A stretch of 64,000 nt of DNA from Spirochaetia bacterium (GCA_963675665.1 OY776510.1:3776001-3840000); one strand, 5' to 3'. Positions 5,090 through 54,317 are shown, counted from the first letter of the stretch. The notes: generated by a model from the letters alone, not told the origin. Program-made: numbers and translations.

Positions 5090-5101
5090 GCCACTGGTAA
5101 A

Positions 5102-5117
5102 TGCAATTTATATACCA
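5102..5117 (-). promoter_or_regulatory. Sigma54 (-24/-12) promoter of the amidohydrolase-symporter operon
   Basis: TGGTATATAAATTGCA fits TGGCAC-N5-TTGCW with exact GG-N10-GC spacing; NtrC-type gene adjacent. Confidence 0.7.
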
Positions 5118-5234
5118 ATTCCCTGTTTTCATTATAAATCGTTCGTTATTACTTACTATAAAAAGAATTATAAAAAAACAGACTGTTTTGGTCGAAATAA
5201 AATGCAGATATTCTTAATTTTTAAAATCAGAATT

Positions 5235-5290
5235 ATAACTTTTTTTATAACAAAAGTTATAACAGTCTATAAACCATAACTTTTGTTATA
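5235..5290. promoter_or_regulatory. Candidate upstream activator sites ATAAC-N4-GTTAT (two perfect, one degenerate)
   Basis: Perfect palindromes at 5247-5260 and 5276-5289, degenerate copy at 5235-5248, about 120-170 bp upstream of the sigma54 site. Confidence 0.55.
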
Positions 5291-8711: not shown

Positions 8712-8781
8712 GCATGATGATAGTTAAACAATCATCCGCTGTCAATGAAAATAAAACCTGAAGTGTTGGTTTCATTTATAG

Positions 8782-8943
8782 TTATTTTATTTTTTCCGGT
8801 CTGCATAAGTATTTTTCATCTGCTGCAGTTCTCAGGCATTTTCTGCAGATATATTTGGCATTTTTAACCTGTTCAAGAATTTCTTCATCATCTGCACTGA
8901 AACCTTTTTTAACAGCTTTACACATTTTCTTCAATTTCAACAT
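8782..8943 (-). CDS. Small Cys-rich protein (53 aa)
   Basis: MLKLKKMCK...YICRKCLRTA...YLCRPEKIK; ATG 8943 lies just after the ABC-F stop. Confidence 0.6.
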   Translation of the reverse strand: MLKLKKMCKAVKKGFSADDEEILEQVKNAKYICRKCLRTAADEKYLCRPEKIK

Positions 8944-8950
8944 AATTTCT

Positions 8951-10834: not shown

Positions 10835-10887
10835 CGGTCTAATTTAACAGGTTTTTTAAGTTTAAGCGATAGTATACGATTATAAAA

Positions 10888-17041: not shown

Positions 17042-17488
17042 ATGCATCATTCACCGGGACATTATATTTCTTCGGCGTACCGCCATCTTCAGATTTATCT
17101 GAATAACCGGTTTTCCGTTCTCGGCTTCGGCAGCGGACAGTACCTGTTCTTTAGCCATATTGCGCATAATGAAGGAATAACACAAAAAGAACTCAGCAGA
17201 CAATTGGCTGTAGATAAAGCTACCGCGGCAAAAGCTGTCCACAAATTGTGCCGGCTGGGATACCTCGAGCAGCGTCAGAATATCCTGGACAAACGTTACA
17301 ACAACCTATTTATTTCGGACAAAGGCAGGGGTATTTTACCCGAAGTCGAAAAAATTCTTTTCAATACCCGGGACATTCTTCAGTCGGGAATGAATAAAGA
17401 AGAACAACAGCAGATGTTGCGTCTGCTTGATTTAATGCTGAAAAACCTGACCGCCGAAGTGGATAAAATCAGGAGAACAGATGACTGA
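17042..17488 (+). CDS. MarR family transcriptional regulator
   Basis: GITQKEL...VDKATA...DKR winged-helix pattern. Confidence 0.88.
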   Translation: MHHSPGHYISSAYRHLQIYLNNRFSVLGFGSGQYLFFSHIAHNEGITQKELSRQLAVDKATAAKAVHKLCRLGYLEQRQNILDKRYNNLFISDKGRGILPEVEKILFNTRDILQSGMNKEEQQQMLRLLDLMLKNLTAEVDKIRRTDD

Positions 17489-18833
17489 CAGGATAAAAAT
17501 AATTACAAACAACAGCGAAACAGGTGTTCTTGCCGGTTTGGCTTTTCCGATGATGGCGGGAATTCTCGGGATGAGCATTTTCAATCTTATGGATACCTTT
17601 TTCGTTGGCAAACTTGGAACGGTTGAACTTGCCGCACTCTCTTTCACTTTTCCCGTAGTACTGATAGTAAGCAGCGCCGCCCACGGTCTCGGTGTTGGAA
17701 TGACGGCGGCGGTATCCAAGGCTGCGGGCATGAACGACCGAAACAGATTAAAGAACATTATCAGCTGGGGCCTGCTGCTCGCGCTGATAATAGTTACAGC
17801 TATTGTAATTGTCGGCCAGCTTACAATTGAACCGGTTTTCAGGGCCCTCGGTGCTGATGATCAAACGCTTCCGGTAATCATTGAATATATGAGGATATGG
17901 TATTTCGGAGCAATATTTGTAGTAATTCCAATGGTCGGAAATTCGGCAATCAGGGGATTGGGCGACACACGGCTGCCTTCGATGGTCATGCTTGTCGCCG
18001 CAGCAATAAATACTGTTCTTGACCCTCTCCTTATCTTTGGGCTAGGGCCTTTTCCCGAACTGGGCGTTGCGGGCGCAGCAACAGCAACCGTGGCAGCACG
18101 TTTTTCTACATTTTGTGTTGCATTATGGGTGCTGATAAAAAGAGAAAAAGTCATATCCGTTCCCGATCTTTCCGCCGCGGCAGAGACCTGGAAGGAAATT
18201 CTTTTTGTCGGCGTTCCCAATATTCTAACAAAACTTATATTACCCTTCGGCGCCGCCATAATCACCAGGCTTATTTCTATTCACGGACGTGAAGCAGTTG
18301 CCGGATTCGGAGTTGCAGGCAAACTCGAGATGTTTGCCCTTATTCCTCTTATGGCTCTTACATCGATCATGCCGGTATTTATAGGCCAGAACATGGGCGC
18401 CGGAAAAAAAGACAGAGTAATTAAAAGCCTGTCTATAAGCGGAAAATTTTCTGTTTTTTACGGTTTATCCATCTATATAATACTGCTTCTTTCCGGACGG
18501 GCTATCGGAAGACTATTCAATGATAATCCTGATGTCATTAATACTGTCGCACTCTATCTTTCAATCGTGCCTGCAGCATACTGTTTTCGAAACATGATGG
18601 ATCTGTCCATCTCTGCACTTTCAGTTACCGGAAAGCCGATTCACGGAGCTCTAATCAGTATTTTTCAAATGTTTGTACTCTATGTTCCGCTTGCAATTGC
18701 AGGTTCCCGGTTATTCGGGGTTACCGGGATTTTCAGCGCGCTGTCCTTATCCCTGTTGGTAGCCGGACCGGCATCCTTCCTGCTGACAAGGAAACATATC
18801 ATAAAGATGTCTATATCAGGGAAAGCCGGTTAA
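17481..18833 (+). CDS. MATE family efflux transporter
   Basis: 12-TM pattern; DTFFVGKLG, RGLGDT, NTVLDPLLIFG, GQNMGA motifs. Confidence 0.92.
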   Translation: MTDRIKIITNNSETGVLAGLAFPMMAGILGMSIFNLMDTFFVGKLGTVELAALSFTFPVVLIVSSAAHGLGVGMTAAVSKAAGMNDRNRLKNIISWGLLLALIIVTAIVIVGQLTIEPVFRALGADDQTLPVIIEYMRIWYFGAIFVVIPMVGNSAIRGLGDTRLPSMVMLVAAAINTVLDPLLIFGLGPFPELGVAGAATATVAARFSTFCVALWVLIKREKVISVPDLSAAAETWKEILFVGVPNILTKLILPFGAAIITRLISIHGREAVAGFGVAGKLEMFALIPLMALTSIMPVFIGQNMGAGKKDRVIKSLSISGKFSVFYGLSIYIILLLSGRAIGRLFNDNPDVINTVALYLSIVPAAYCFRNMMDLSISALSVTGKPIHGALISIFQMFVLYVPLAIAGSRLFGVTGIFSALSLSLLVAGPASFLLTRKHIIKMSISGKAG

Positions 18834-19264: not shown

Positions 19265-19368
19265 TTTTGATTAATTTTTCATTAAAAAATTAATCAAAAC
19301 TTGACAATTTTTTTAACCCATGTGAAACTGTTGATATGATCAGTAATATTACTTATAGTATATTACTA
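19265..19368 (+). promoter_or_regulatory. gntR promoter with two palindromic operator candidates
   Basis: 15-bp perfect inverted repeat TTTTGATTAATTTTT/AAAAATTAATCAAAA (19265-19299) abutting TTGACA (19301); AGTAATATTACT (19342-19353) and TAGTATATTACTA (19356-19368) downstream. Confidence 0.55.
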
Positions 19369-19405: not shown

Positions 19406-20065
19406 ATGAGCGATTCCAAAAATACTTTAAAATCCCAGGTTTACGAAAGCATACTTACCAAAATCATAAACAATGAATTTCCAATGGAATCGCTGCTTGT
19501 CGAAAATCAACTGACAAAAATGTTCAATGTCAGCAGGGCGCCTGTTCGAGAGGCTCTTATCGAATTGTGCCGTGAAGACATTCTCACCAACATTCCACGG
19601 GCCGGATACCAGATTGTCCGTATTTCGGAAAAGCAGATGCGTGATGCGTTTCAGCTTCGTTTGATTCTTGAACTGGAAGGCTGTCGCCTTGCTTTTGAAA
19701 GAATGTCCGACGCAAATGTTGAAGAACTGACAAATATTGCAGCAGACTCGGACCGTATCAGGGCTGAGGGAAAAAGCTCTGATTCTCTTGATTTAAAAAT
19801 GCAGCTTAATGATCAGTTTCATTTGCGTCTGAACGAGCTTTCCGGTAATGCGCTAATTCATAAAACACTCACTGAAACATTCAATCTTATCAGAAGAGGT
19901 CTGGCTCAGGTAATGATACAGGAATACGGACTGCCCTCTCCCGACATCACATATCATACCGGGCTGGTTCAGGGATTACAGGAAAGAAACCTGGAAAAGG
20001 CGTTAGAAAACCTGGAAAATGACATTCTTGTTTACAAGCAGAATGTATGGAGCAGAGTTTTTTAA
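19406..20065 (+). CDS. GntR family (FCD type) transcriptional regulator
   Basis: N-terminal LTKMFNVSRAPVREAL HTH; FCD motifs NDQFH and SGN. Confidence 0.9.
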   Translation: MSDSKNTLKSQVYESILTKIINNEFPMESLLVENQLTKMFNVSRAPVREALIELCREDILTNIPRAGYQIVRISEKQMRDAFQLRLILELEGCRLAFERMSDANVEELTNIAADSDRIRAEGKSSDSLDLKMQLNDQFHLRLNELSGNALIHKTLTETFNLIRRGLAQVMIQEYGLPSPDITYHTGLVQGLQERNLEKALENLENDILVYKQNVWSRVF

Positions 20066-20127
20066 TCATATGTAACGGAGGTAACCCCTTAACGGGCTTC
20101 CGAACAAATTTTTATAATGGAGGAATT

Positions 20128-21267
20128 ATGAAAAGCAAAGCAAAGGTTATCGTTATCCTGCTTGTTCTGGCACTGCTGGCAATACCTGTTTTCGCAGGCG
20201 GTCAGCAGGAAGCAAGCAACGATGACAGCGACACAATCCACATCGCGCTGACGGCGCCGATTACCGGAGATTACTCCGAATACGGCAAAAACTTTCAACG
20301 CTCTGTAGAGATGGGAATTGAGTTTATCAATGCAGACGGCGGTGTACTTGGAAAAGAACTTGTTCTTTCGGTAGGCGATTCCAAAGGCGACCCCAAAGAA
20401 TCAGCAACGCTGGCACAGAAATGGACTTCTGATCCTACTATTGTTGCGCAGATTGGAGACTTTACTTCTACCTGTTGTATGGCTTCACAGCCTATCTACG
20501 ATCAGGCACAGATGGTACAGCTCTCACCTACTGCCAGTCATACAGATTATGCAAAGGGTTCAACCTGGAGCTTCGGCATAGTCGGTACACAGGCAGCAGA
20601 AGGTCCTTTCATGGCTGATTTTGCATACAATGAGCTGGGACTCAGAACAATTGCAGTCATCAACATTAATAATGACTGGGGCGTTGATACCCAGAAATAC
20701 TTCTCTGAAGCCTTCAAAAAACTCGGCGGTAAAATAATAGCAAAAGAATCTTACTTCGATGGAGAAAAAGACTTTACTGCAATATTGACAAAACTGAAAA
20801 CTTCAAATCCGGATGCTCTTTTCATGGCAGCCATGTATAACGACGGTGCGCTTATCAGCAAACAGCGCGCTAAACTTGGATGGGATGTTACAGTAGTCGG
20901 ACCTTCTTCACTTTATTCAGAACAGCTTCTTAATCTGGGCGGAGACGCAGTTGAAGGACTTTATACCAATGTAAGTTTCTTTACTGAAGATCCGGATCCT
21001 GCAGTACAGTCATATGTATCTGAATTCGAATCACGTTACGGCATCAAACCTAATTTCCACGCTGCACTTGCTTTCGATGCTATCAACCTTCTTGCAGATG
21101 CAATTGAAAAAGCCGGAACAACAGATCGGGCCGCAATACGTGAAGCTCTTTCCGGCACAAAGGACTTTGACGCTCTTACGGGATCAATTACCTTCACTCC
21201 GGTAGGTGACGCTGTTAAACAGTACACAAGAGTATGGATCAAGGACGGAAAATTCAAGGTTTATTAA
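20128..21267 (+). CDS. Liv-type (branched-chain amino acid family) ABC substrate-binding protein
   Basis: GGAGG SD then MKSKAK; APITGD, INADGGVLGK, DSKGDPKES, LTGSITF motifs. Confidence 0.9.
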   Translation: MKSKAKVIVILLVLALLAIPVFAGGQQEASNDDSDTIHIALTAPITGDYSEYGKNFQRSVEMGIEFINADGGVLGKELVLSVGDSKGDPKESATLAQKWTSDPTIVAQIGDFTSTCCMASQPIYDQAQMVQLSPTASHTDYAKGSTWSFGIVGTQAAEGPFMADFAYNELGLRTIAVININNDWGVDTQKYFSEAFKKLGGKIIAKESYFDGEKDFTAILTKLKTSNPDALFMAAMYNDGALISKQRAKLGWDVTVVGPSSLYSEQLLNLGGDAVEGLYTNVSFFTEDPDPAVQSYVSEFESRYGIKPNFHAALAFDAINLLADAIEKAGTTDRAAIREALSGTKDFDALTGSITFTPVGDAVKQYTRVWIKDGKFKVY

Positions 21268-21288
21268 AACCTGTTCAATTCTATCTAT

Positions 21289-21311
21289 GGAGCCTGGTAA
21301 TGCCAGGCTCC
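21289..21311 (+). terminator. Intra-operon stem-loop after the binding-protein gene
   Basis: GGAGCCTGG-taatg-CCAGGCTCC with a weak U tract; typical mRNA-stabilising/attenuating hairpin. Confidence 0.6.
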
Positions 21312-21342
21312 ACTTTCAAGAATCAAGTTTAAGGGGTTACTG

Positions 21343-22209
21343 ATGTTACTGCAACAGTTAATTAATGGTATTACCCAGGGCAGTATTTTCGCACTTTTAG
21401 CAATTTGTTTTTCGCTGGTCTGGGGATTATTGAAAATGGTAAACTTCGCGCTGGGCGAAATATATATGTTCGGCGGTTTCATGGGCTGGCTTATAGTCAC
21501 ATATTTTACCAAAAATATTTTTGTAGCCATGGCGGCCGGAATCATCATCGGCTGGTTTCTTGGCTGGATAATAGAGAAATCAGCATTCAAGGCACTTCGC
21601 GGTGCACCTCATATAGCATCGCTTATTTGTACCCTTGGGTTCTCGGTACTTCTCAAAGAGCTTGCTAACGTTCTGTTCGGTGCCGAGACAAAATCAATGC
21701 CCGATTTTTTCAGCTCTTCAGCTTTCACTATCGGACCGGCAAATATTACCTGGCTTCAGGTGATAATGATTGTCACTGCGGTAATCATTCTGGTCGGTCT
21801 GCAGTTGTTCATTTATAAAACGAAACTCGGTCTTGGGATCAGGGCAGTTTCGCTTGATTACCAGGCAGCAGGCTTAATGGGAATCAATGTAGACAGGGTA
21901 ATTTCTGTTGCATTTTCACTATCCGGAGCTCTTGCTGGTTTAATTGGTGTTCTCGGGGCAACTTACTATAATGCTGTAAATCCGCATATCGGGTTTGCAC
22001 CAGGAATGAAGGGATTCACAGCCGCGGTTTTCGGCGGAATAACATCTATCCCGGGAGCAATTCTCGGCGGCTATCTGTTAGGCATTATTGAGAACCTCAG
22101 TGTTCAGTTTGTTGCATCGGGGTACAGGGACTTTATCGCATATTCGATTCTGATCCTGTTTCTGCTCTTCAGACCGAACGGAATTCTCGGTAAAAAATCC
22201 AAGCTGTAG
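21343..22209 (+). CDS. Liv-type ABC permease (LivH-like)
   Basis: QQLINGI, VNFALGE, GLGIRAVS, GGITSIPGA motifs. Confidence 0.9.
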   Translation: MLLQQLINGITQGSIFALLAICFSLVWGLLKMVNFALGEIYMFGGFMGWLIVTYFTKNIFVAMAAGIIIGWFLGWIIEKSAFKALRGAPHIASLICTLGFSVLLKELANVLFGAETKSMPDFFSSSAFTIGPANITWLQVIMIVTAVIILVGLQLFIYKTKLGLGIRAVSLDYQAAGLMGINVDRVISVAFSLSGALAGLIGVLGATYYNAVNPHIGFAPGMKGFTAAVFGGITSIPGAILGGYLLGIIENLSVQFVASGYRDFIAYSILILFLLFRPNGILGKKSKL

Positions 22210-22221
22210 GGGGTAATTAAA

Positions 22222-23229
22222 ATGGATAAATTCAAGAAATTCGCCGCCGAACACAAGCTTGTTTTCGGTATAGTCATTGCTGTCCTGCTTGTTCTGGCGC
22301 CTTTTATTCTCGGCAGCCCCTATCTTGTCAGGGTTGCTATAATGATTTGCATATTCGTTATTCTTTCATCCAGTCTCAATCTGATTATTGGATTCACCGG
22401 AATGTTTTCACTGGCGCATGCCGCATTCTACGGCCTCGGCGCTTACTGTTCCGCCCTTCTTGCAACCAACTTCGGTCTTCCCTTCCTTGTGACTCTGCCG
22501 ATTGCCGGAATCTTTGCGGGACTGCTCGGAGCATTTGTAGGCCTGGCCACATTAAGACTCAGAGAGACATTCCTGGTATTCGGGACCCTTGCCTTCGGCG
22601 AGATAGTACGAATCGTTATAATGAACTGGAATTCCGTCACCAGGGGGCCAATGGGCGTGCCCGGAATACCTTTTCCGAAAATATTCGGACTGGAATTCAG
22701 CAATTATACCCTTTATTACTACCTTGTGCTTGTATTTGCTGCCGTTATCGTATTTTTGATATACAGAATGTACAATTCCAGAATCGGCCGTGCGTTTATC
22801 GCTCTTCGTGAGGATGAAACAGGTGCCTCTTCAATGGGAGTTTTCGTCTTCGGCTACAAGGTATGGGCTTTTACTCTCGGCTGTTTTTTTGCCGGAATTG
22901 CCGGAGCGCTTTATGCACACTTTGTGAGATACATTTCTGCCGACCAGTTCGGAGTTAACGAATCCTTCGCTATTCTCACCATGGTTGCGCTCGGCGGAAC
23001 GGGTTCAATTATAGGGCCTATTGTCGGCGCTGTGATTCTCATGGTTTTCCCGGAGCTGTTCAGGTTCCTCGAAGAATACCGAATGGTTCTCTACGGGTTG
23101 ATTCTTATTTCAATAATGATGTTCAAACCCGAGGGCATAGCAGGATTCAAGGGAATGTTTCCACGAGATTTTGATATGTCGTCCATATTCAAACGCCGCA
23201 AAAAAGTTGCTGAATCGGAGGAGGCATAA
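22222..23229 (+). CDS. Liv-type ABC permease (LivM-like)
   Basis: SLAHAAFYGLGAY, TLAFGEI, ALREDE, KPEGI motifs. Confidence 0.9.
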   Translation: MDKFKKFAAEHKLVFGIVIAVLLVLAPFILGSPYLVRVAIMICIFVILSSSLNLIIGFTGMFSLAHAAFYGLGAYCSALLATNFGLPFLVTLPIAGIFAGLLGAFVGLATLRLRETFLVFGTLAFGEIVRIVIMNWNSVTRGPMGVPGIPFPKIFGLEFSNYTLYYYLVLVFAAVIVFLIYRMYNSRIGRAFIALREDETGASSMGVFVFGYKVWAFTLGCFFAGIAGALYAHFVRYISADQFGVNESFAILTMVALGGTGSIIGPIVGAVILMVFPELFRFLEEYRMVLYGLILISIMMFKPEGIAGFKGMFPRDFDMSSIFKRRKKVAESEEA

Positions 23230-23231
23230 TT

Positions 23232-23996
23232 ATGATACTTGATATTAAGAATTTAAATAAATCCTTCGGCGGACTCAAGGCTGTAAACAATGTTAATATG
23301 ACGGTTGAAAAAAACAGTATTCATGCTGTTATCGGTCCCAACGGCGCCGGAAAAACAACATTCTTCAATTGTATAACCTCTATAAAACCGTCAGATTCAG
23401 GTGAGATAATCTGGAAAGGAGAAGATATTGCAGGGCTGTCCACACATGTAATTTCAACAAAAGGCATATCACGAACCTTTCAGAATATAAGGCTTTTCTC
23501 CTACATGTCCGTGCTTGATAATGTACTTGTCGGTACGCATAACCTGACAAAATCATTCATTCTTGACGCATGTTTCCACAGCAGCCGATATCGTCGTGAA
23601 GAGAAGGAAATGCGTGAATTCGGAATGGACCTTTTAAATAAAGTCGGCCTTGCCGATAAAGCCGGCGAATACGCTAAAAACCTTCCTTACGGAGAACAGC
23701 GGAAACTTGAGATAGCTAGAGCAATGGGCAGTAAACCCGAAATCCTTCTTCTAGATGAACCTGCAGCAGGCATGAACAGCCACGAAACGGCTGAACTCGT
23801 AGATTTTATCAGCGTACTGAAAGATGAAGGTTTTACCATTCTTCTAATTGAGCACGATATGAAGCTTGTAATGAGCCTGGCCGATATAATTTCAGTTATT
23901 GATTACGGCAGCAAGATAGCTGAAGGAGCCGCTGCTGATATTCAGTCGAATGAACGGGTAATTGAAGCCTATCTCGGCAAGAGGAGGTACGAATAA
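23232..23996 (+). CDS. Liv-type ABC ATPase (LivG-like)
   Basis: FGGLKAV, GPNGAGKTT, LPYGEQRKLEIARA, IEHDM, EAYLG. Confidence 0.92.
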   Translation: MILDIKNLNKSFGGLKAVNNVNMTVEKNSIHAVIGPNGAGKTTFFNCITSIKPSDSGEIIWKGEDIAGLSTHVISTKGISRTFQNIRLFSYMSVLDNVLVGTHNLTKSFILDACFHSSRYRREEKEMREFGMDLLNKVGLADKAGEYAKNLPYGEQRKLEIARAMGSKPEILLLDEPAAGMNSHETAELVDFISVLKDEGFTILLIEHDMKLVMSLADIISVIDYGSKIAEGAAADIQSNERVIEAYLGKRRYE

Positions 23997-24712
23997 TGGG
24001 AATACTTGATATTAATAAACTTGTAGTACATTACGGAAAAATAAATGCGCTTAAGGGCGTTTCCCTTTCGGTTGAAGCCGGAGATATTGTTACAATAATC
24101 GGAGCAAACGGAGCCGGCAAAACTACTCTTCTTCAGACTGTAAGCGGCGTTATCCGGCCCACATCCGGCACTGTAAAATTCAACGGTAAGAATATTACCG
24201 GAGAACGATCGGACAACATCCTCAAACTCGGGGTAGCTCATGTTCCTGAAGGAAGACGTGTTTTCTCCGAACTTTCGGTTGAGGACAACCTCCTTTGCGG
24301 GGCCTACCTTAACAATAACAAAGAGGACAAAAAGCGGCTGCTTGATGAACAGTATGAGCTTTTTCCCAGGCTTGCCGAACGCAAAACCCAGGAGGCAGGA
24401 AGTCTCTCAGGCGGCGAGCAGCAAATGCTGGCTATTGCAAGGGGCATGATGTCCAAACCCGGAATTCTTCTTCTTGATGAACCGAGCCTTGGTCTGGCTC
24501 CGATTCTGGTAGAGCGTATTTTCGACATGATCGCCGAGATCAACAAAAAAGGAACTACAATACTCCTGGTTGAACAGAATGCAAATATAGCTCTCCACGT
24601 AGCTTCCTACGGCTACATACTCGAAACGGGAAAGATAACGGTTGAAGATACAACCGAAGTACTGAGAAGCGATGACACCGTTCAGAAAGCATATCTCGGT
24701 ATAGCAGATTAG
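23996..24712 (+). CDS. Liv-type ABC ATPase (LivF-like)
   Basis: GANGAGKTT, VPEGRRVF, LSGGEQQML, DEPSLGLAP, VEQN. Confidence 0.92.
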   Translation: MGILDINKLVVHYGKINALKGVSLSVEAGDIVTIIGANGAGKTTLLQTVSGVIRPTSGTVKFNGKNITGERSDNILKLGVAHVPEGRRVFSELSVEDNLLCGAYLNNNKEDKKRLLDEQYELFPRLAERKTQEAGSLSGGEQQMLAIARGMMSKPGILLLDEPSLGLAPILVERIFDMIAEINKKGTTILLVEQNANIALHVASYGYILETGKITVEDTTEVLRSDDTVQKAYLGIAD

Positions 24713-24723
24713 ATGGGGGAACA

Positions 24724-25656
24724 ATGAATAAAATTGAACGGATAGACGCAGTGCTTGCCGGTGAAAAACCGGATCGCGCGCCTGTTTCATGCTGGTATCA
24801 TTTCGGGCTGCAGTATCTGCCGGGAGAACAGTTTGCCGATATAGTGCTTTCTTTTTTTGAACATTATGATTTTGACTGGCTCAAGGTGATGAATGACTAT
24901 TTTTATCCCATGCCCGACGGTATGACGGCACTCAAAACTGCCGGTGATCTTGAAAAAATAAAAATATTCGATATCGACAACTCTCCTTTTATCGAACAGT
25001 TACGCGCTATTGCCAAAATATCAAAAGCGCTTGAAGGAAAAGCCTATTTCTGCGATACGATATTTGATCCGTATCAGGCGTTCCAGAAAAGTCCGGTAGG
25101 CGAACATTTGCCGCGGCTGATGAAAGAAGAACCGGATGCTGTTCTGAGTGCGCTGGATATTGTCAGCGACAATATAATTACCTATGCAAAAAGAACACTT
25201 GAAGCAGGCACTCACGGCATTTTCATGTCCGTTCTTGCCGGTACCGATCAGATGAGCAGAGAAGATTTTCTGAAATTCGAAAAACCCTTTGCGATGAAGG
25301 TTTTTGATGCAGTCAAGGACATGGGAGCAATGAACACCGCACATCTTCACGGTAAAAACGTGGACATAACAAATTGCCTGGACTTTCCTGTATCAGTTTT
25401 CAGCTGGGAAGACAGGCTTCCGGGCAATTTAAGCCTTGCCGAAATGAAAGCTCAATGGAACGGCTGTGTAATGGGCGGTCTTGATAATACAATCATGACC
25501 CGCAGAACACCGGAAGCGCTTATGAAACATACACGCGAGGGAATGGAGCTCGGCGGCGACAGCAGGTTCTTTCTTGCCAACGGCTGCAGCACTCCCGGTC
25601 ATATGGATCCTTATGCGCTTAAAGCAATGGTGGATGTAGCCCAGGGAAAACTTTAA
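24724..25656 (+). CDS. Uroporphyrinogen decarboxylase/MtaA-like (URO-D superfamily) protein
   Basis: GEKPDRAPVS start, EDFLKFEKPF, HLHG, MGGLD, FFLANGCS layout; not a canonical HemE. Confidence 0.8.
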   Translation: MNKIERIDAVLAGEKPDRAPVSCWYHFGLQYLPGEQFADIVLSFFEHYDFDWLKVMNDYFYPMPDGMTALKTAGDLEKIKIFDIDNSPFIEQLRAIAKISKALEGKAYFCDTIFDPYQAFQKSPVGEHLPRLMKEEPDAVLSALDIVSDNIITYAKRTLEAGTHGIFMSVLAGTDQMSREDFLKFEKPFAMKVFDAVKDMGAMNTAHLHGKNVDITNCLDFPVSVFSWEDRLPGNLSLAEMKAQWNGCVMGGLDNTIMTRRTPEALMKHTREGMELGGDSRFFLANGCSTPGHMDPYALKAMVDVAQGKL

Positions 25657-25663
25657 GAAACTT

Positions 25664-27154
25664 ATGAATTACCTTATTGTGGACTACGGAACTTCAAGCT
25701 GCCGTGCATCTCTTGTCAGCAGTGATTCAGGCAAAATAATTGCCTCATGCAGGAAAGATACCTCTGTATTGACTGTAAACAAATCAGCAGAAATTGATAC
25801 AGATACAGCCTGGGATTCAGTTCTGTCCGTAATCAGGCACATTTCAGACAATAATGCCGCCGCAGAGATTTCCGCGGTCGGGATAAGTTCGCTTCTGGGG
25901 TGGGTTTTTCTGAACAAAAACAACACTCCTGTTCAAAACAGTATTATATGGATGGATGCCCGAAACAGTACTTCGCTTGAAACCAGCATCAAAGAAAACA
26001 GCTCTGCTGTCTACAAAAAAACCGGCCGTAAACTCAGCAACGAACTTCTTGTTTCCAAATGGGCCTGGCTTCTTGAAAACAGCCCGGAAACAGCAGAGTC
26101 CGCTGTGAAAATAATCAGTTTAAAAGACGAGTTTATACGAAGACTAACCGGTGAAATAATCACGGATATTGCACATCTTGATTATACAATGCTCTGGAAT
26201 ATCAGGCAGAACAATATCGATTCCGATATGCTTGAAATTGCAAATATTAAACCCGGAATGACGGCGCCTGCGCTCTACCCCTATCAACAGGCCGGTTTTG
26301 TATCGGGCGAAGCCGCAGCTGCAACCGGGTTAAAACAGGGGACTCCCGTTATTGCAGGTTCAATTGACGGAACCACTGCAATGTACGGAGGCGGCATGGC
26401 TGAAACCGGCAAAGCAGTTCTTGTATCCGGGACTACCGATGTACTCATGACGCTAACATCCGAATATTTCCCGGATAATCCCGGATGCAGTGATGTCCTT
26501 ACTGTTAATAACGGAATGGTTCCCGGTACCTTCGCAGCAGGAGGTTCAACCGGGACTTCGGGCGGGGCGTTACTCAGAATAGTCAATCTGTTCGGCGGAG
26601 AGCTGGAGAATCTTATTGACCAGGCCTCCGGAATCACGCCCGGGGCCGAAGGTCTTCTCTTCTCAGCCGGACTGTCCGGCGAACGGGCCCCATACTGGGA
26701 CCCGGATATTACTGGAGGCCTTTTCGGTCTGCGAATGAATCATAAACCCGGTCATATAATAAGAGCCCTGCTGGAAGGCACAGCTTTTCGCCTGAGAAGA
26801 CTCGCAGATGAATTATTCATCCTTACAGGCAAACCGGAAAATTTATTTGTACTTGGAGGAGGTTCTGAAATTGAATGCTGGAACAGTATAAAAGCTGATA
26901 TTTCAGGTATCCCCTTATGCCGTCCTGCTGAAACCGAGGCTACAACAATCGGCACCGCAATGTTTTGCGACTGCTTTATGAGGAATTCATCTGATATAGA
27001 AAAAGTAAGCAAAAAATGGATAAAATCCGGCACGGACTATCCTGTTGATTCTGAAAATCACGAGATCTACAGCAGGCTTTTCCGTATCTTTGAAGGTTTT
27101 ATTGAACAAAATAAAGAAAACTATGCTGCGTTAGGCAGATTTGCAAGGATATAA
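25664..27154 (+). CDS. FGGY family carbohydrate kinase (xylulokinase-like)
   Basis: VDYGTSS, IIWMDAR, LSGERAPYWD, RALLEG, LGGGS motifs. Confidence 0.88.
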   Translation: MNYLIVDYGTSSCRASLVSSDSGKIIASCRKDTSVLTVNKSAEIDTDTAWDSVLSVIRHISDNNAAAEISAVGISSLLGWVFLNKNNTPVQNSIIWMDARNSTSLETSIKENSSAVYKKTGRKLSNELLVSKWAWLLENSPETAESAVKIISLKDEFIRRLTGEIITDIAHLDYTMLWNIRQNNIDSDMLEIANIKPGMTAPALYPYQQAGFVSGEAAAATGLKQGTPVIAGSIDGTTAMYGGGMAETGKAVLVSGTTDVLMTLTSEYFPDNPGCSDVLTVNNGMVPGTFAAGGSTGTSGGALLRIVNLFGGELENLIDQASGITPGAEGLLFSAGLSGERAPYWDPDITGGLFGLRMNHKPGHIIRALLEGTAFRLRRLADELFILTGKPENLFVLGGGSEIECWNSIKADISGIPLCRPAETEATTIGTAMFCDCFMRNSSDIEKVSKKWIKSGTDYPVDSENHEIYSRLFRIFEGFIEQNKENYAALGRFARI

Positions 27155-27155
27155 T

Positions 27156-27647
27156 ATGAACAACGCCGAGATGGTTACTGAAAAAGAACTGATAACCAAA
27201 TTCAGGGCTGCAATTAAAGACAGAGCTACATGGTTTGCACTGCTCTATCGGGAGTTTCTGTCCGAACTTCCTGCGGCGACAGTCGAAAAGGCAAGCCGGA
27301 ACGCTATATATGCATACGGAAAGCTGAAAGCCTCACGGGATACAGCGGATTTTTCAGCAGGGGAGCTTCTTGACAATTTCGTAGAAACGGGGGGCGCAAA
27401 AATCTTCGATGCAAAAATTGAGAATACAGCTGAAGGAGTACTTAATAAAGTTCACAACTGCGCGCTTGTCGATGCATGGAAAGAAATGAACTGTTCACAG
27501 GAAGAAGTTGAACTATTCTGTGATATTGCGATGGACGGCGATCGGGGTCGCGCTGAAGGCCACGGTTTAACCCTCAAACTCAGGGAAACTCTGGCCAAAA
27601 ATGATGATTATTGCTGGATTTGCCTGTCTGATCCTGATAATAAATAA
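27156..27647 (+). CDS. L-2-aminothiazoline-4-carboxylate (ATC) hydrolase-like protein, paralog 1
   Basis: RATW, CALVDAW, CDIAMDGDRG and ETLA...C motifs shared with paralogs; start at ATG 27156. Confidence 0.75.
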   Translation: MNNAEMVTEKELITKFRAAIKDRATWFALLYREFLSELPAATVEKASRNAIYAYGKLKASRDTADFSAGELLDNFVETGGAKIFDAKIENTAEGVLNKVHNCALVDAWKEMNCSQEEVELFCDIAMDGDRGRAEGHGLTLKLRETLAKNDDYCWICLSDPDNK

Positions 27648-27671
27648 AACACACAAATTATGGAGACAAAT

Positions 27672-28160
27672 ATGAGCGAAAACAAGGAAATGGTTACCAA
27701 GGAAGAGATGATTACAAAAATCAGAGCAGCAATTAAGGACAGAGCTACATGGTTTGCCCTCCTTTATGAAGAATTCTGCAAAGAACTTCCTGAAGAAAAG
27801 GTTATTGAACTCAGCCGAAAAGCAATAACCAGGTACGGTTATATGAAAGCGGCAAAAGATCCTGAACCCTTCAAAGCAAAAGACTGGGTAATAAGACATA
27901 AGGATAAAGGATCTGCCGATGTCTTTGATTCGGATATTGAATACAATGATACTGAAGCAACGCAAAGAATGAAAAATTGTGCCCTTGTAGATGCCTGGAA
28001 AGAGATGAATTACAGTCCGGAAAAAATTGATCTTTTCTGCGATATTGCAATGGACGGTGACCGGGGCCGGGCTCAGGGTCACGACAATATTATAATGGAG
28101 TTACATGAGACCATTGGCAAGGGGTGTGATTTCTGCAGACTGGTTATAAAAGAAAAATAG
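27672..28160 (+). CDS. ATC hydrolase-like protein, paralog 2
   Basis: Same motifs; several blocks identical to paralog 1; GGAG SD before ATG 27672. Confidence 0.75.
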   Translation: MSENKEMVTKEEMITKIRAAIKDRATWFALLYEEFCKELPEEKVIELSRKAITRYGYMKAAKDPEPFKAKDWVIRHKDKGSADVFDSDIEYNDTEATQRMKNCALVDAWKEMNYSPEKIDLFCDIAMDGDRGRAQGHDNIIMELHETIGKGCDFCRLVIKEK

Positions 28161-28175
28161 TCGGAGGATGGATAG

Positions 28176-28724
28176 TTGAACATTTATTTCTGCGGAATGA
28201 TTGGCACCGGCAAAACTACCATCGGGCTGAAACTTTCTGAAGAGCTTGGGCTTGATTTCTATGATCTTGATCGTGTTATGGACAACAGACTCGGTTATTC
28301 ATTTCACAAACTGGTAGCAGAAAAAGGCTGGCTGGCATTCAGGGAACTTGAATATTCAATCTGCCGCGATTTTTCAAAAAAGAAAAACTCAATAATATGC
28401 CTCGGCGGCGGTACGGTTCGATACGACTGGAACGTCGATATTCTGAAACCAACAGGAAAATTGATTCTTTTCGAAGCATCAATTGCAGTACTGGTTAACC
28501 GTGTATCGAAGGCGGACAGGCCCCGGGTCAATGAAGGTGTAAGCCTTGAAGAGGACCTTCGAATTATGTATGAACAATCGCATGACAAGTATCTTGCCGC
28601 CGCAGATATTATTTATCGGACAGACAAAAAATCTGAAGATGAAGAAGTTCAGGACATCAAAGATATGATTTTTACAGATCCGGATCTGTCTGAAATTAAA
28701 TTACATTGCAAATCATCAGCATAA
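28176..28724 (+). CDS. Shikimate kinase-like P-loop kinase
   Basis: GMIGTGKTT, DLD, FRELE, LGGGTV and RP motifs; TTG start with GGAGG SD. Confidence 0.8.
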   Translation: MNIYFCGMIGTGKTTIGLKLSEELGLDFYDLDRVMDNRLGYSFHKLVAEKGWLAFRELEYSICRDFSKKKNSIICLGGGTVRYDWNVDILKPTGKLILFEASIAVLVNRVSKADRPRVNEGVSLEEDLRIMYEQSHDKYLAAADIIYRTDKKSEDEEVQDIKDMIFTDPDLSEIKLHCKSSA

Positions 28725-28735
28725 AGGAGAATTAT

Positions 28736-29116
28736 ATGAAAGAAATAATTAATACTGAAAAGGCCCCGTCCGCTATCGGGCCATATTCACAGGCCGTTAA
28801 AATAAACGGCTTTGTATATACTTCCGGACAGCTCGGTATTAACCCGGCAACAGGAGAACTTCCGGAAGGAGTTGAAGCCCAAACTGAAGCTTCCATTAAA
28901 AACGCCGAAGCGATTCTGAATGCCGAAGGATTAACGCTTTCCGATGTCTTTAAAACTCTGGTGTTTATTAAAGACATGAATGATTTCGGAAAGGTCAATA
29001 ATGTATACAGCAGATTTTTCACCGAAAATTTCCCTGCGCGAAGCTGTGTTGAAGTTGCCAGACTTCCAAAGGATGCGCTTGTTGAAATTGAATTCATTGC
29101 CGGCTGTCAGGAATAA
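28736..29116 (+). CDS. ridA: RidA enamine/imine deaminase
   Basis: APSAIGPYSQA, SGQLG, FPARSCVEVARLPK, VEIE. Confidence 0.92.
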   Translation: MKEIINTEKAPSAIGPYSQAVKINGFVYTSGQLGINPATGELPEGVEAQTEASIKNAEAILNAEGLTLSDVFKTLVFIKDMNDFGKVNNVYSRFFTENFPARSCVEVARLPKDALVEIEFIAGCQE

Positions 29117-29119
29117 TAA

Positions 29120-30445
29120 ATGAAAAATGAACTATGGAATGATTTTATTATTCTAATCAAACAGGAAGTTGTGCCGGCCCTGGGCTGCACGGAACCAATT
29201 GCCGTAGCTCTTGCTGCAGCCAAAGCTGCGGAAGTTCTCGGAAAAGAACCTGAGGCTATTGATGTATATCTCAGCCAGAATGTACTTAAAAACGGCATGA
29301 GCGTCGGAATTCCGGGAACCGGGCTTTACGGCCTTGAGATAGCAACCGCCGTAGGAGCATTGGGCGGGAATTCCACTTACGGACTTGAAGTACTTAAAAA
29401 CCTTACTCCTGAAAATCTTGAAAAAGGCAAAGCTATGCTTAAAGCCGGAAAAGTAAAGGTTAACCTTAAAGAAGTTCCGGATGTACTTTATATTGAAGTT
29501 ACAGTAAGAACATCCGATGAAAACGCAAAGGTTATCATCAAAAAACGCCACGACAATATCTGTTATATTGAGCAAAACGGTAAAATCATTCTTGATTCCG
29601 ATATGGATAAAGCATCAGCAGATTCGGCATCAGATAATCCTTCCGCCAAATTACTTGAAGAACTCAGTGAAAAGGATATCTGGGATTTTGCAACAAATGT
29701 ACCGCTTGAAAAAATTGAATTTATAATGGAAGCCGTAGAATTAAACAAAAAGATATCAGAAGAAGGATTAAGGGGTGATTACGGCCTTAAGGTAGGAAAA
29801 TCTATTGATGAAAATATCATCAAGGGATTTCTTCAGTCCGACCTGAGCAATGATGCCGTAAAAAGAACAGCAAGCGGCGCCGATGCCCGAATGGCCGGTT
29901 CGGACCTGCCGGTTATGAGTAATTCAGGAAGCGGAAACCAGGGAATAACTGCGACAATGCCTGTAGTGGCCGTAGCGGAAAAAATCGGCTCAGGCCGTGA
30001 ACAGCTTATACGCGCGCTGATTTTAAGCCACCTTACTTCCATTCACATGAAATCCAAAATGGACAGGCTGTCCGCCCTTTGCGGAGCGTCTGTTGCAGCT
30101 ACCGGCGCCAGCTGCGGAGTTGTGTACCTTCTCGGCGGTGTTTATGAACATGTAGAGTATGCAATTAAAAATATGGTTGGAAACATTGCCGGAATGGTAT
30201 GCGACGGAGCCAAAACAAGCTGCGCGCTTAAAGTAGCTTCATCAGTAAGCGCCGGGGTTCAGGGAGCATTACTGGCCATAAACAGCATAGGCGTTACGGA
30301 AATAGAAGGTATTGTTGAAGAAGATATCGAAAGAACAATAAACAATCTCGGAAAACTCGGTTCAAGCGGCATGGCTGAAACCGATAAGGTTATTCTTTCA
30401 ATAATGACATCGAAAGTTAAAGCATATAAAGACAAGGCGGTTTAG
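29120..30445 (+). CDS. cyuA: L-cysteine desulfidase, CyuA/YhaM type (serine dehydratase alpha family)
   Basis: VVPALGCTEP, KNGMSVGIPGTG, DARMAG, MSNSGSGNQG, LSALCG, CDGAKTSCALK. Confidence 0.85.
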   Translation: MKNELWNDFIILIKQEVVPALGCTEPIAVALAAAKAAEVLGKEPEAIDVYLSQNVLKNGMSVGIPGTGLYGLEIATAVGALGGNSTYGLEVLKNLTPENLEKGKAMLKAGKVKVNLKEVPDVLYIEVTVRTSDENAKVIIKKRHDNICYIEQNGKIILDSDMDKASADSASDNPSAKLLEELSEKDIWDFATNVPLEKIEFIMEAVELNKKISEEGLRGDYGLKVGKSIDENIIKGFLQSDLSNDAVKRTASGADARMAGSDLPVMSNSGSGNQGITATMPVVAVAEKIGSGREQLIRALILSHLTSIHMKSKMDRLSALCGASVAATGASCGVVYLLGGVYEHVEYAIKNMVGNIAGMVCDGAKTSCALKVASSVSAGVQGALLAINSIGVTEIEGIVEEDIERTINNLGKLGSSGMAETDKVILSIMTSKVKAYKDKAV

Positions 30446-30447
30446 AA

Positions 30448-30936
30448 ATGAAAATTAAGAATAATCCTGTACAGCATGATTCACATATAGATTCAATCAG
30501 AAACGCAATCGAGCACAGGGCCACCTGGATGTATCTGCTTATGGATGAAGCAAGAAAGCGGGGTCTTGAATGGGAAGACTTCGGCAGGGATGCAATTCTT
30601 CGCTGCGGGCATTTCCACGGTCAGACAAAATTTCCTGAAACTGAAAACCTGAAAACTTTCGGTGAAAGTTTTGCTACTGAAGACCTGAAAAAAGTCTTTG
30701 ACATGAATGTTGTTCAGTGCGACGAAGATGCTTTTATTGTCGAATTCAATTACTGCCCGCTCCTCTCCGCCTGGATTAAACAGACGGATAATGAGAAAGA
30801 TATTGAGCTTCTTTGTGATATCGCCATGGACGGCGATCGCGGAATTATTGAAGAATACCCGAAATTCAATTTTGATCTCCAAAGTACTCTCGCCTGCGGC
30901 GACAAGGTCTGCCGGCTGGTGATTTCAAAGAAATAG
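30448..30936 (+). CDS. ATC hydrolase-like protein, paralog 3 (divergent)
   Basis: HRATW, YCPLLSAW, CDIAMDGDRG, TLACGDKVC. Confidence 0.78.
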   Translation: MKIKNNPVQHDSHIDSIRNAIEHRATWMYLLMDEARKRGLEWEDFGRDAILRCGHFHGQTKFPETENLKTFGESFATEDLKKVFDMNVVQCDEDAFIVEFNYCPLLSAWIKQTDNEKDIELLCDIAMDGDRGIIEEYPKFNFDLQSTLACGDKVCRLVISKK

Positions 30937-30947
30937 GGTTTTATTCG

Positions 30948-30976
30948 ACGGGTATCCTTAAAGACGGATACCCGTT
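30948..30976 (+). terminator. Terminator hairpin closing the GntR locus
   Basis: ACGGGTATCC...GGATACCCGT inverted repeat just after paralog 3. Confidence 0.65.
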
Positions 30977-30987
30977 ATAATCCCGTC

Positions 30988-31872
30988 ATGACGGTTAAAA
31001 TCCCCCGGTTAACCGGATTCTGTCCGGGTGTTAAAGCGGCTGAAAAAAGAATTTTTTCGGAAACAGAAAACTCTCCCCAAAAAAAACATTCTGTTATCGG
31101 AATGATGATAAATAATCGTAAATATATTGAGTATCTGAATGAAAACAATATCCTTACAATAGAATCGGAAGACAATATTCCTGATGGTTCTACCCTTTTT
31201 ATCAGAACGCATGGAATAGACAGGGAAACTCAGTCACGGTTGTCTCAAAATTATAACCTTATCGATCTTACCTGCCGGAATGTAAAACGGGTTCAGGAAA
31301 TAATCAAAATACATTCGGATAAAGGACAAACTATAATTATAACCGGAAAAAAAAGTCATCCCGAGGTCACGGGTCTAAAAAGTTACGGGTCAGAGGTATT
31401 TGTCATAGAAACACCTGAAGAACTTGAAAACTTTCTGTCCAATCTGAAAATCGACGGAACTGCATTCAATCCTGCATCAGTTTCAGGGATATTCATAACG
31501 TCCCAGACAACCGGCAGCCGTACACTTTTTGAATCTGCAATTGAAAAAATCAGAAGCCGATGGCCTGAATTAACAGTTGAAAGTTTCAATTCCATCTGCC
31601 CCGTTACAGAAAAAAAAGAAAATGAAGCGCTTGAAATTCAGCAGGAAGTAGACATCAGTTTCGTCATCGGCGACCCGTTGTCTTCCAACGCCAAAAAGCT
31701 TTACAGGCGCTTATCCGAATCCGGCAGAAAAACCTTCTTTATACAGGATGTCGAAGAACTCAAAAAACTTGATATCGACTTCAGCGGCCTTGAAAGCGCC
31801 CTTGTTGTATCATCTGCTTCAACTCCGGACTTTGTTGAAAAAAAAGTTGTAGATTACCTGCTTCTTAAATAA
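30988..31872 (+). CDS. ispH: 4-hydroxy-3-methylbut-2-enyl diphosphate reductase
   Basis: GFCPGV, IRTHG, DLTC, HPEV, SQTT, NSIC, SSN, ASTP; three cluster Cys present. Confidence 0.88.
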   Translation: MTVKIPRLTGFCPGVKAAEKRIFSETENSPQKKHSVIGMMINNRKYIEYLNENNILTIESEDNIPDGSTLFIRTHGIDRETQSRLSQNYNLIDLTCRNVKRVQEIIKIHSDKGQTIIITGKKSHPEVTGLKSYGSEVFVIETPEELENFLSNLKIDGTAFNPASVSGIFITSQTTGSRTLFESAIEKIRSRWPELTVESFNSICPVTEKKENEALEIQQEVDISFVIGDPLSSNAKKLYRRLSESGRKTFFIQDVEELKKLDIDFSGLESALVVSSASTPDFVEKKVVDYLLLK

Positions 31873-53836: not shown

Positions 53837-53933
53837 GCGGCTATTATTCAATTTAATCAGTCCGCTGTCAAAGGGTTTTTCCATCTTGACTATATATGCA
53901 AGTCATGATAGAAAAGAGCATAATTTTTCCGGG

Positions 53934-54101
53934 TCAATAGAGGCGCGGACGTCATCAGTAGTCTGCCGAGAAATCGGGCATTTCAGTGAAGCAGAAACGA
54001 AAGGGGTCGTCCGCCGAAGAAACAGGCAAACCCGAAAGCCGTTTTCTGGGCTCAGTGGATAATATCCCTGAGACTGTCACTTAAAAGTGGAGAGCTATTG
54101 A
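53934..54101 (+). ncRNA. Lysine riboswitch (L-box)
   Basis: P1 TCAATAG/CTATTGA; conserved AGAGGCGC, GAAAGG, GCCGAA, CTGGG, ACTGTC, GGAGAGCT; upstream of aspartate kinase. Confidence 0.92.
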
Positions 54102-54317
54102 ACTGCAGAGTCTTGAAGGCCCAGCCTTCGGCGCTGCTTTGCAGGCAGTTTTTCCATTCTTTAGACTATGGATTCGGAGTCATTGAAGCAATCGTAAATA
54201 ATTGCTTTCGAAGTGTTTTGACATCGAGCCATAGAACGTTTGTTTTACCGCTTTCAGTCAGAATACTTCATCTCACAAACCACCTTTCAAGACGTAAGGT
54301 TTTATAGGAGACTAAAA

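Follow-up and report, generated by a model that had tools for sequence, protein, structure and literature searches.

What does a bacterium take up and break down with a Liv-type ABC importer, a URO-D-like enzyme, two kinases, three members of the family named for 2-aminothiazoline-4-carboxylate (ATC) hydrolase, a RidA protein and a cysteine desulfidase, all encoded in a row? The question is raised by a 14-gene gntR locus at positions 19406-30936 of a 64,000-nucleotide stretch of a Spirochaetia bacterium genome (GCA_963675665.1, OY776510.1:3776001-3840000; this whole stretch is hereafter called the window). The answer we favor, at roughly even odds (about 50%), is that the locus serves the uptake and breakdown of an amino-acid-type conjugate, most likely cysteine joined to a sugar-like or hydroxy-acid-like moiety. 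The argument rests on which genes stay together across genomes, and on what replaces the cysteine desulfidase where it is missing.

All 14 open reading frames (ORFs) lie on the + strand, and an ORF listing returned the same coordinates as the original prediction, which was made from this DNA alone. The junctions between them are, in order, -19, +75, +12, +2, -1, +11, +7, -14, +12, +15, -19, +3 and +2 nt, most of them below 16 nt, with a 19-nt overlap and a 75-nt gap as the extremes. Every gene scores above the Pfam gathering score, each in the family first named for it. The predicted co-directional, tightly spaced gntR locus is thus borne out, and gene spacing and synteny both point to co-transcription of the 14 genes as one operon. 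The arrangement is not due to chance, because the 14-gene order recurs in two genomes of the same genus and its core in 43 of 80 related loci, which belong to several phyla.

The related loci come from a scan covering 185,579 species, each represented by one genome. It gave 330 relatives of the URO-D-like protein; the best 80 of these were examined with 10-kb flanks, and all counts out of 80 refer to them. In the two same-genus genomes, protein identity is 74-94% for most genes and 56-59% for the FGGY kinase. Elsewhere in the class, the Liv, URO-D-like, FGGY and SKI-like genes (SKI being the shikimate-kinase-family paralog) are retained by three genomes that belong to other families, together with zero to two PF14196 ("ATC hydrolase") genes; they lack cyuA and the third PF14196 gene (ATC3) at the locus, and in one of them (L013) a gene resembling ridA lies on the opposite strand. 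Spirochaetota and Desulfobacterales/Thermodesulfobacteriota are the most frequent taxa among the 80, and further carriers are Candidatus Vecturithrix/UASB270, a Holophagaceae metagenome-assembled genome and a Hyphomicrobiales metagenome-assembled genome. The SKI gene adjoins the URO-D-like gene in 43 loci. At least four liv genes are present in 32 of these 43, FGGY in 25 and PF14196 in 24; FGGY and PF14196 occur together in 12 and neither occurs in 6. Among the 37 loci without SKI, FGGY, PF14196 and liv are each found in a single one. The picture is unchanged when the count is limited to the 43 loci whose flanks reach 5.5 kb or more upstream and 3.5 kb or more downstream (SKI in 25 of 43, and with it liv in 22, FGGY in 19 and PF14196 in 12). 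The core of the system is the Liv importer, the URO-D-like enzyme and the SKI-like kinase, usually with FGGY and/or PF14196, and its most conserved gene is the one for the URO-D-like enzyme. The ridA-cyuA-ATC3 block is a lineage-specific accessory. In a quick tree of 59 URO-D-like proteins, SKI-linked and solitary copies are interleaved, with at least eight changes between the two states; because of this interleaving, we regard them as one orthologous family.

The link to cysteine comes from that accessory block and from its counterpart in other spirochaetes. The cyuA gene (29120..30445, +) encodes an SDH_alpha protein (PF03313, 228.5 bits, matching residues 87-426 of 441) that aligns over residues 12-432 with the solved L-cysteine desulfidases 9he0 (E 1.5e-33) and 9fsl (3.6e-33). 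The cysteines in its GCTE, CGA, CDG and SCALK motifs are aligned and identical with those of both structures, and we take them to be Fe-S cluster ligands; the protein is best described as a CyuA-type Fe-S L-cysteine desulfidase homologue, judging by this similarity. Just upstream, ridA (28706..29116, +) encodes an enamine/imine deaminase of the Ribonuc_L-PSP family (TIGR00004, 167.4 bits; cut-off, 106.25). Three loci of other spirochaetes (L082, L087 and L092) have a Liv-URO-D-FGGY-SKI operon that is flanked by divergent genes for RidA, a YheO-PAS/HTH_22 regulator and an "aminotransferase" that belongs to the PatB family of C-S lyases, as judged by TIGR04350 in L087 and L092 (488 and 507 bits, cut-off 340) and in L082 by tblastn only (63% identity). 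CyuA with RidA and PatB with RidA are unrelated routes to the same beta-elimination on cysteine or cysteine S-conjugates. Of our arguments for cysteine or a cysteine S-conjugate as a product of the core, this non-homologous replacement of one pair by the other is the strongest, and such an intermediate is likely. In three loci, SKI is followed by a DinB/mycothiol-S-transferase-like gene.

The related loci vary in other ways as well. An operon copy with 74-86% identity, lacking ATC1 and ridA, lies at 4707-15330 of L016, on a contig titled uncultured Desulfosarcina sp.; its URO-D-like protein nests in the spirochaete clade next to that of the window, which suggests a recent horizontal transfer or a binning or labelling error. 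L087 (5274-13810) combines three URO-D-family paralogs in a single operon that lacks PF14196, and L019 (2770-9896) has an extra upstream URO-D paralog and a ribokinase gene between livF and the URO-D-like gene. In one Desulfobacterales clade (e.g., L074 9579-12155, L056 and L054), the URO-D-like gene sits between a small Cupin_2 gene and an MsrA/MsrB fusion. The genes that come next encode an extracytoplasmic function (ECF) sigma factor, DUF3106 and an ABC exporter, and both the importer and SKI are missing. In all, 19 of the 80 loci have Cupin_2 together with the URO-D-like gene. A cluster of proteins of unknown function near the related loci (cluster "20") turned out to be an artefact, a shadow ORF antisense to an M20 gene.

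What, then, could the most conserved gene do? The URO-D-family protein (24724..25656, +; 310 aa; Pfam URO-D, 85.6 bits) matches profile positions 101-343 only and lacks approximately 30-40 N-terminal profile residues. It scores 24.6 bits against the HemE model TIGR01464 (cut-off 302.95) and is not a decarboxylase-type HemE. It also falls below the MtaA/CmuA models (TIGR01463, 48.2 against 235.4 bits; NF004889, 59.7 against 244). Residues H207, H209, D230 and C288 are invariant in 59 URO-D-like sequences. A structure model built from the same 59 sequences has a predicted local distance difference test score (pLDDT) of 95.6, and its top TM-score is to the MtaA-type methyltransferase 4ay7 (TM 0.83, root mean square deviation 3.2), with HemE structures at 0.78-0.82 and MetE at 0.5-0.6. 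In a profile alignment to 4ay7, H207-x-H209 falls on "LHICG", E229-D230 on "LSVEEK" and C288 on "APGCG", positions that presumably hold the zinc ligands in MtaA (H-x-C, E and C). The predicted (beta/alpha)8 enzyme would thus place H-x-H where MtaA has H-x-C, its second position being His instead of Cys. The zinc site of MtaA resembles the His-Cys-Glu-Cys site of MetE, and such sites activate thiols for alkyl transfer. Altogether, the model and the alignment point to a putative MtaA/MT2-like Zn site in the URO-D-like enzyme.

MtaA-type enzymes normally work with corrinoid proteins. A search of the whole genome gave 12 URO-D-family genes and, for the B12-binding domain, 13 hits (11 exceeding the family cut-off). 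The two best-scoring URO-D genes adjoin corrinoid proteins. As at least two MtaA-like genes are paired with an adjacent corrinoid gene, the spirochaete is likely to carry out corrinoid-dependent methyl transfer, for instance O-demethylation. The operon copy has no such neighbor: the B12-binding hit nearest to the operon is more than 650 kb away, and tblastn with one corrinoid protein of this genome as the query found no match in the 80 loci. Among longer proteins, a search at E <= 1e-20 gave no fused form of the URO-D-like protein, a negative of little weight, and the ESM Atlas returned only generic URO-D clusters.

The PF14196 proteins present a comparable case of a familiar name on a divergent protein. 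ATC1 (27141-27647, +; 47.1 bits), ATC2 (27660-28160, +; 54.4 bits) and ATC3 (30448..30936, +; 49.8 bits) all exceed the PF14196 gathering cut-off of 28.1 bits. ATC1 and ATC2 are 51% identical, and the divergent ATC3 is 29-33% identical to either; it adjoins cyuA in L014, L015 and L016. Three cysteines (C107, C127 and C158/159) are the sole invariant columns among 37 PF14196 sequences. A protein similar to ATC2, at 69% identity, is encoded by the cultured species Sediminispirochaeta smaragdinae. A profile search of these proteins against PDB sequences gave nothing meaningful. The ATC2 model (pLDDT 95) matches Bet3/TRAPP subunits, the phenol-sensing domains of MopR/PoxR/DmpR, the V4R protein 2oso and H-NOX, with Foldseek E values of about 1e-4 and VIA-align Z scores of 5-8. 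These matches agree with a passage in PMC5847659 that links PF14196 to V4R and H-NOX via a three-Cys cluster. The PF14196 proteins therefore seem, on the strength of the model, to have the V4R/Bet3 fold of small-ligand binders. The original prediction had called these genes ATC hydrolase-like; their family membership stands, and with the predicted ligand-binding fold the enzymatic part of the name is uncertain.

As in the route from ATC to cysteine, PF14196 keeps company with M20 amidohydrolases, and this is seen in two settings. Nine Desulfobacterales loci have an upstream M20 gene (TIGR01891, 394 bits; cut-off, 154) accompanied by a small cupin, a tenth has part of such a gene, and PF14196 is also present in five of those loci. 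The genome of the window itself has a second CyuA cluster, L094 (G000:C1:2216000-2232000, ORFs 4613-11402), which encodes a SorC-type regulator, an unknown 434-aa protein, PF14196 (109 bits), an M20 amidohydrolase (TIGR01891, 238 bits), a paralog of the operon's CyuA (39% identity) and a BenE-family transporter. By its gene content, L094 looks like a complete route from ATC via N-carbamoylcysteine and cysteine to pyruvate and H2S. Two further PF14196 genes occur in this genome (L095 5547-6683 and L096 5559-6170); one is fused to a transglutaminase-core domain and lies beside a TetR gene, and the other lies between a GntP-like permease gene and genes for an amidohydrolase and a PALP enzyme.

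Two kinases complete the set of enzymes. The SKI paralog (28176..28724, +; PF01202, 108.9 bits) reaches no equivalog cut-off (shikimate kinase, 87.1 against 204 bits; SKI-type homoserine kinase, 73 against 197 bits), and no gluconokinase model is among its 13 NCBIfam hits. With three members of the SKI family in this genome and two or more in each of five others that carry the operon, the operon gene is a paralog and not the sole shikimate kinase of the aro pathway. An alignment with 2pt5, a shikimate kinase, shows that the P-loop, an Asp, an Arg and the GGG stretch are retained and that the protein differs where we would expect the second carboxylate-binding Arg. The FGGY-family sugar/polyol kinase (25664..27154, +; FGGY_N 131 bits, FGGY_C 100.8 bits) is likewise below the cut-offs of specific models (XylB, 228 against 380 bits; gluconokinase, 187 against 649 bits), and its PDB neighbors are xylulose, gluconate and glycerol kinases. 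The ribokinase in the L019 operon scores 355 bits (equivalog cut-off, 300). With FGGY in 25 of the 43 SKI-linked loci and a ribokinase in L019, a sugar-like moiety in the substrate is plausible.

The front of the operon would fit import under substrate control. Its first gene, gntR (19406..20065, +), encodes a GntR protein with an FCD effector domain of the FadR type (PF00392, 52 bits; PF07729, 51 bits) that reaches no NCBIfam equivalog cut-off and is presumed to be an autorepressor. It is followed by a Liv-type (Peripla_BP_6) substrate-binding protein with an N-terminal extension of approximately 60 residues (20047..21267, +; PF13458, 226 bits) and, across 21343..24712 (+), by two BPD_transp_2 permeases (21343-22209 and 22222-23229) and two ABC_tran ATPases (23232-23996 and 23996-24712; ABC_tran with BCA_ABC_TP_C). 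LivH/M/G/F are the top-scoring models for the permeases and ATPases, all under their cut-offs; against the LIV-I models, the importer scores 142 of 477 bits (LivK-type binding protein), 203 of 379, 224 of 366, 286 of 362 and 286 of 441. The predicted importer thus has LIV-I architecture and domain families and falls short of the equivalog models. The solved structures closest to the binding protein are amino-acid binders (3hut, 3td9, 4n0q and 4gnr).

Upstream of gntR, alignment with the corresponding DNA of L014, L015 and L016 delimits a promoter/operator region (19301..19359, +). It contains TTGACA at 19301-19306 and an inverted repeat, (C/T)TGAT-ATG-ATCAG, at 19331-19343, which is a candidate GntR operator overlapped by promoter-like hexamers. 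Both elements are invariant or nearly so across the three loci, and the flanking sequence has diverged. The motif is not enriched elsewhere in the window (five matches with up to two mismatches against 1.4 expected; 4 of 100 shuffles reach five). The conserved repeat fits autorepression by the FCD-type GntR protein, which may bind there.

From the gene content, operon structure, synteny, protein families, folds and conserved residues at metal-ligand positions, we infer a substrate, an order of steps, a catalytic role for the Zn enzyme, the targets of both kinases and every other core catalytic assignment. The operon would be repressed by its own FCD-type GntR protein and derepressed by the substrate or a product. 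The Liv-type importer would take up an amino-acid-type conjugate, and the Zn enzyme and/or the PF14196 proteins would open or cleave its C-S/C-N linkage without a neighboring corrinoid protein. The SKI-like and FGGY kinases would phosphorylate the released sugar, polyol or hydroxy-acid part, or the intact conjugate. In this lineage, L-cysteine would be released, CyuA would convert it to H2S and 2-aminoacrylate, and RidA would hydrolyze the latter to pyruvate and ammonia. The most likely class of substrate, fitting most parts, is a 2-substituted thiazolidine- or thiazoline-4-carboxylate, with a polyhydroxyalkyl or acyl-derived substituent, or an S-substituted cysteine. It is tempting to go further and see here an undescribed salvage or catabolic route for sugar- or hydroxy-acid-substituted thiazolidine-/thiazoline-4-carboxylates, of spontaneous or natural origin. 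Such a route would have two new activities, a corrinoid-independent URO-D/MtaA member that breaks the C-S bond at a thiophilic His2-Asp/Glu-Cys zinc site and V4R-fold PF14196 ring hydrolases, and would pass the cysteine to H2S-forming enzymes and the carbon skeleton to dedicated kinases; its carriers, all from anoxic habitats, would include Spirochaetota, Desulfobacterota, Moduliflexota and Acidobacteriota. In that full form, we regard the proposal as speculative and rather doubtful.

Several observations weigh against the cysteine-conjugate reading. Of the 80 loci, only 4 have cyuA (L014, L015, L016 and, in opposite orientation, L021) and 6 have ridA, and with the window CyuA as the query, no CyuA was found anywhere in three operon-bearing genomes (G033, G037 and G040, which are 98, 69 and 97% complete); since the core is kept without CyuA, cysteine catabolism could be an add-on. 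The idea that CyuA and PF14196 form a general pair was rejected, as 0 of 29 other Spirochaetota CyuA loci carry PF14196 within 1.5 kb on either side; nor do any of the 29 share the neighbors of the window cyuA, barring one gntR-like gene. PF14196 and FGGY are each absent from about half of the SKI-linked loci, and a few of those loci have neither. Hydrolase activity in PF14196 goes back only to the founding member of the Pfam family, the relatives being ligand-binding domains, and there is no M20 gene within 19406-30936. An MtaA-like site normally implies corrinoid methyl transfer. The SKI paralog is nearer to shikimate kinase than to any sugar kinase and has no specific substrate in our scheme, and the ribokinase is a feature of a single locus out of 80. 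Measured against this, the original prediction fares unevenly. Of the four families it had expected to travel together, URO-D, FGGY and PF14196 do recur and CyuA does not. Its cysteine-carbohydrate conjugate retains a likely cysteine intermediate, through CyuA and PatB, and a plausible sugar, through FGGY and the ribokinase, and loses CyuA as a part of the core. Its scheme also left out the best-conserved pair, the MtaA-like Zn enzyme and the SKI-like kinase, which had no role in it.

If the cysteine genes are separable, the core may degrade a cysteine-free amino-acid-like compound (hydroxylated, cyclitol/shikimate-like or N-acylated), with ridA-cyuA-ATC3 as a separately acquired module that shares the transcript. 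The rarity of cyuA and the three genomes in which CyuA was not found speak for this, as does the low identity of ATC3, which travels with cyuA, to ATC1 and ATC2. The separate PF14196-M20-CyuA cluster of the same genome shows that such modules can stand alone, the SKI protein keeps the GGG, Asp and Arg positions of 2pt5, and ordinary amino acids are what the best solved relatives of the binding protein bind. A sulfur-free core would, however, leave PatB and RidA on the same core in three other spirochaete loci hard to explain. The DinB/mycothiol-S-transferase-like gene after SKI and a metal site of the thiol-activating type in the core enzyme also speak against it, and we think this explanation unlikely. 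A true MT2/MT1 methyltransferase is the other obvious reading of that metal site. It would remove the methyl group of a methyl ether or methyl thioether amino acid (for example a methionine-type compound, or S-methylcysteine or the corresponding sulfoxide), passing that group to a corrinoid protein encoded elsewhere and the cysteine to CyuA. The fold, the ligand positions and the abundance of URO-D-family genes and B12-binding hits in the genome are all in keeping with this, and MsrA/MsrB fusions follow the URO-D-like gene in nine Desulfobacterales loci. The MsrAB link was down-weighted as evidence for methionine chemistry, since the eight MsrAB-linked copies in the quick tree need only two changes and represent approximately one clade. 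The operon copy also differs from the two classical URO-D genes of the genome in having no corrinoid neighbor, with B12 hits far away and no match in the 80 loci to a corrinoid protein of this genome, its first ligand pair is H-x-H and not H-x-C, and the two or three kinases, PF14196 and M20 would be given no role. We consider a methyltransferase improbable.

The Zn-thiolate chemistry could also run in the opposite direction, forming a thioether. The SKI-like kinase would phosphorylate a hydroxyl as homoserine kinase does, the Zn enzyme would let a thiolate displace the phosphate without pyridoxal phosphate (PLP), and PatB would act as a cystathionine beta-lyase, an activity for which PatB-family lyases are known. 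The homoserine kinase model does score 73 bits on SKI, near the 87 bits of shikimate kinase, the spacing of the metal site is that of Zn-thiolate alkyl-transfer sites of the MetE/MtaA kind, and MsrAB and aminotransferase genes neighbor some loci. Yet no score reaches the homoserine kinase cut-off, an inducible GntR operon with an ABC importer and the cysteine-destroying CyuA and RidA points to catabolism, and FGGY, ribokinase, PF14196 and M20 would go unexplained, which makes synthesis a very improbable purpose. Least probable in our estimation is the salvage of S-ribosylhomocysteine or a related ribosyl thioether, in which the Zn site would bind the homocysteine sulfur and the pentose would be phosphorylated. 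A search of the genome found an MTA/SAH nucleosidase and no LuxS, the L019 operon includes a ribokinase, the relatives of the FGGY kinase include autoinducer 2 (AI-2) and pentulose kinases, and the fold is related to that of MetE, which binds homocysteine via Zn. The genome also encodes SAH hydrolase, so no S-ribosylhomocysteine dead end is expected. Moreover, CyuA and PatB attack cysteine at its beta carbon and do not act on homocysteine, hydrolysis of a thioether is energetically unfavorable, and the ribokinase is confined to that one locus. On balance, we return to the cysteine conjugate as the preferred reading.

The end of the operon is less sharply drawn than had been predicted. A stem-loop (30936..30984, +; -24 kcal/mol, z -3.9) follows the last gene, so the strong hairpin of the proposed terminator is there; it is followed by UUAUAAUCCC, which has no U-tract, and the terminator scan did not list it. 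The stem-loop could be a weak terminator, an attenuator or a stabilizer, and transcription of the operon may continue into the next gene, ispH (30988-31872, 51 nt beyond). The 5.15-Mb genome has no other ispH match, and this one scores 187.1 bits, just below the TIGR00216 cut-off of 187.85. Membership of ispH in the pathway was considered and rejected: because it is the sole genome copy and no ispH hit lies beside the operon in the 80 loci, we treat it as a housekeeping neighbor. A terminator-like hairpin 3' of ispH is shared with a convergent Fe-ADH gene. Elsewhere in the window, a MarR-family regulator gene overlaps the start of a MATE efflux gene (17042-18833), the best NCBIfam match of the regulator being the bilirubin-utilization regulator BilQ (73.5 bits, below the cut-off of 125), and a lysine riboswitch (53930-54105, 97 bits) and a 6S RNA (58745-58922, 60 bits) both exceed their Rfam gathering scores.

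If the cysteine-conjugate reading is right, the operon would represent a hitherto undescribed substrate class and pathway, with at least one probably new enzyme activity. It would give a first function to the widespread subfamily of URO-D/MtaA proteins that have no corrinoid partner (330 relatives in the species-genome set), to the shikimate-kinase paralog that accompanies them and to the branch of the "ATC hydrolase" family found in anaerobes. Sediments, peat and anaerobic reactors would also gain another origin of H2S and a means of recycling cysteine adducts. Should the cysteine reading fail, the core of Liv importer, Zn enzyme and SKI kinase is still conserved and remains a well-defined target.

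How does the operon compare with systems that are already understood? Full-text literature searches found no description of this gene combination, which the original prediction had not recognized as a described pathway either. Its parts can nevertheless be traced to several. The Pseudomonas pathway from L-ATC to L-cysteine (ATC hydrolase AtcB and N-carbamoyl-L-cysteine amidohydrolase AtcC) is echoed by the three operon genes in the Pfam family founded on ATC hydrolase, by the pairing of PF14196 with M20 in the Desulfobacterales versions and in L094, where CyuA is next to them, and by cysteine as a fitting end product. Unlike that route, the window locus has no M20 amidase or racemase, and its PF14196 proteins lie far from the family center (47-54 bits, against 109 bits in L094) with a predicted V4R/Bet3 ligand-binding fold. 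We know of no importer, kinases or URO-D-like enzyme in the Pseudomonas pathway. Cysteine-aldehyde adducts (thiazolidine-4-carboxylate) have reportedly been described in an anaerobic protist in an mBio paper. The resemblance to CyuA/CyuP of Escherichia coli and Salmonella and to the archaeal L-cysteine desulfidase lies in an SDH_alpha protein of approximately 440 aa with shared cysteines, in the expected output of pyruvate, NH3 and H2S and in an anaerobic host. Here, however, cyuA is the 13th of 14 genes, behind an ABC importer, and the operon presumably has no CyuP-type transporter or CyuR regulator.

With MtaA/MT2 and MetE, the URO-D-like enzyme shares the (beta/alpha)8 fold and, at the MtaA ligand positions, His, Glu/Asp and Cys; it departs from MtaA/MT2 in its H-x-H pair, its length of 310 aa, its scores far below the cut-off, the lack of an adjacent corrinoid protein and its partnership with a P-loop kinase of the SKI type. 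The PatB/MalY C-S beta-lyases, which with RidA hold the place of CyuA and RidA in L082, L087 and L092, would carry out the corresponding chemistry, going by the activities known for these families; unlike the window genes, the PatB pair is PLP dependent, divergently transcribed and associated with a YheO-PAS/HTH_22 regulator instead of GntR. The frl operons of Bacillus subtilis and E. coli and the fra operon of Salmonella, which act on Amadori compounds (fructosamines), combine a GntR repressor, a conjugate importer and a sugar kinase and release an amino acid and a sugar phosphate. The spirochaete operon differs from these in lacking a SIS-domain deglycase, in having FGGY and SKI kinases and not PfkB (except for the ribokinase of L019) and in its cysteine-specific downstream enzymes. 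Thus, the operon shares parts with the ATC pathway, the CyuA system, the MT2 methyltransferases and the Amadori-type operons and matches none of them, and with the last of these, as we know them, it has the same operon logic.

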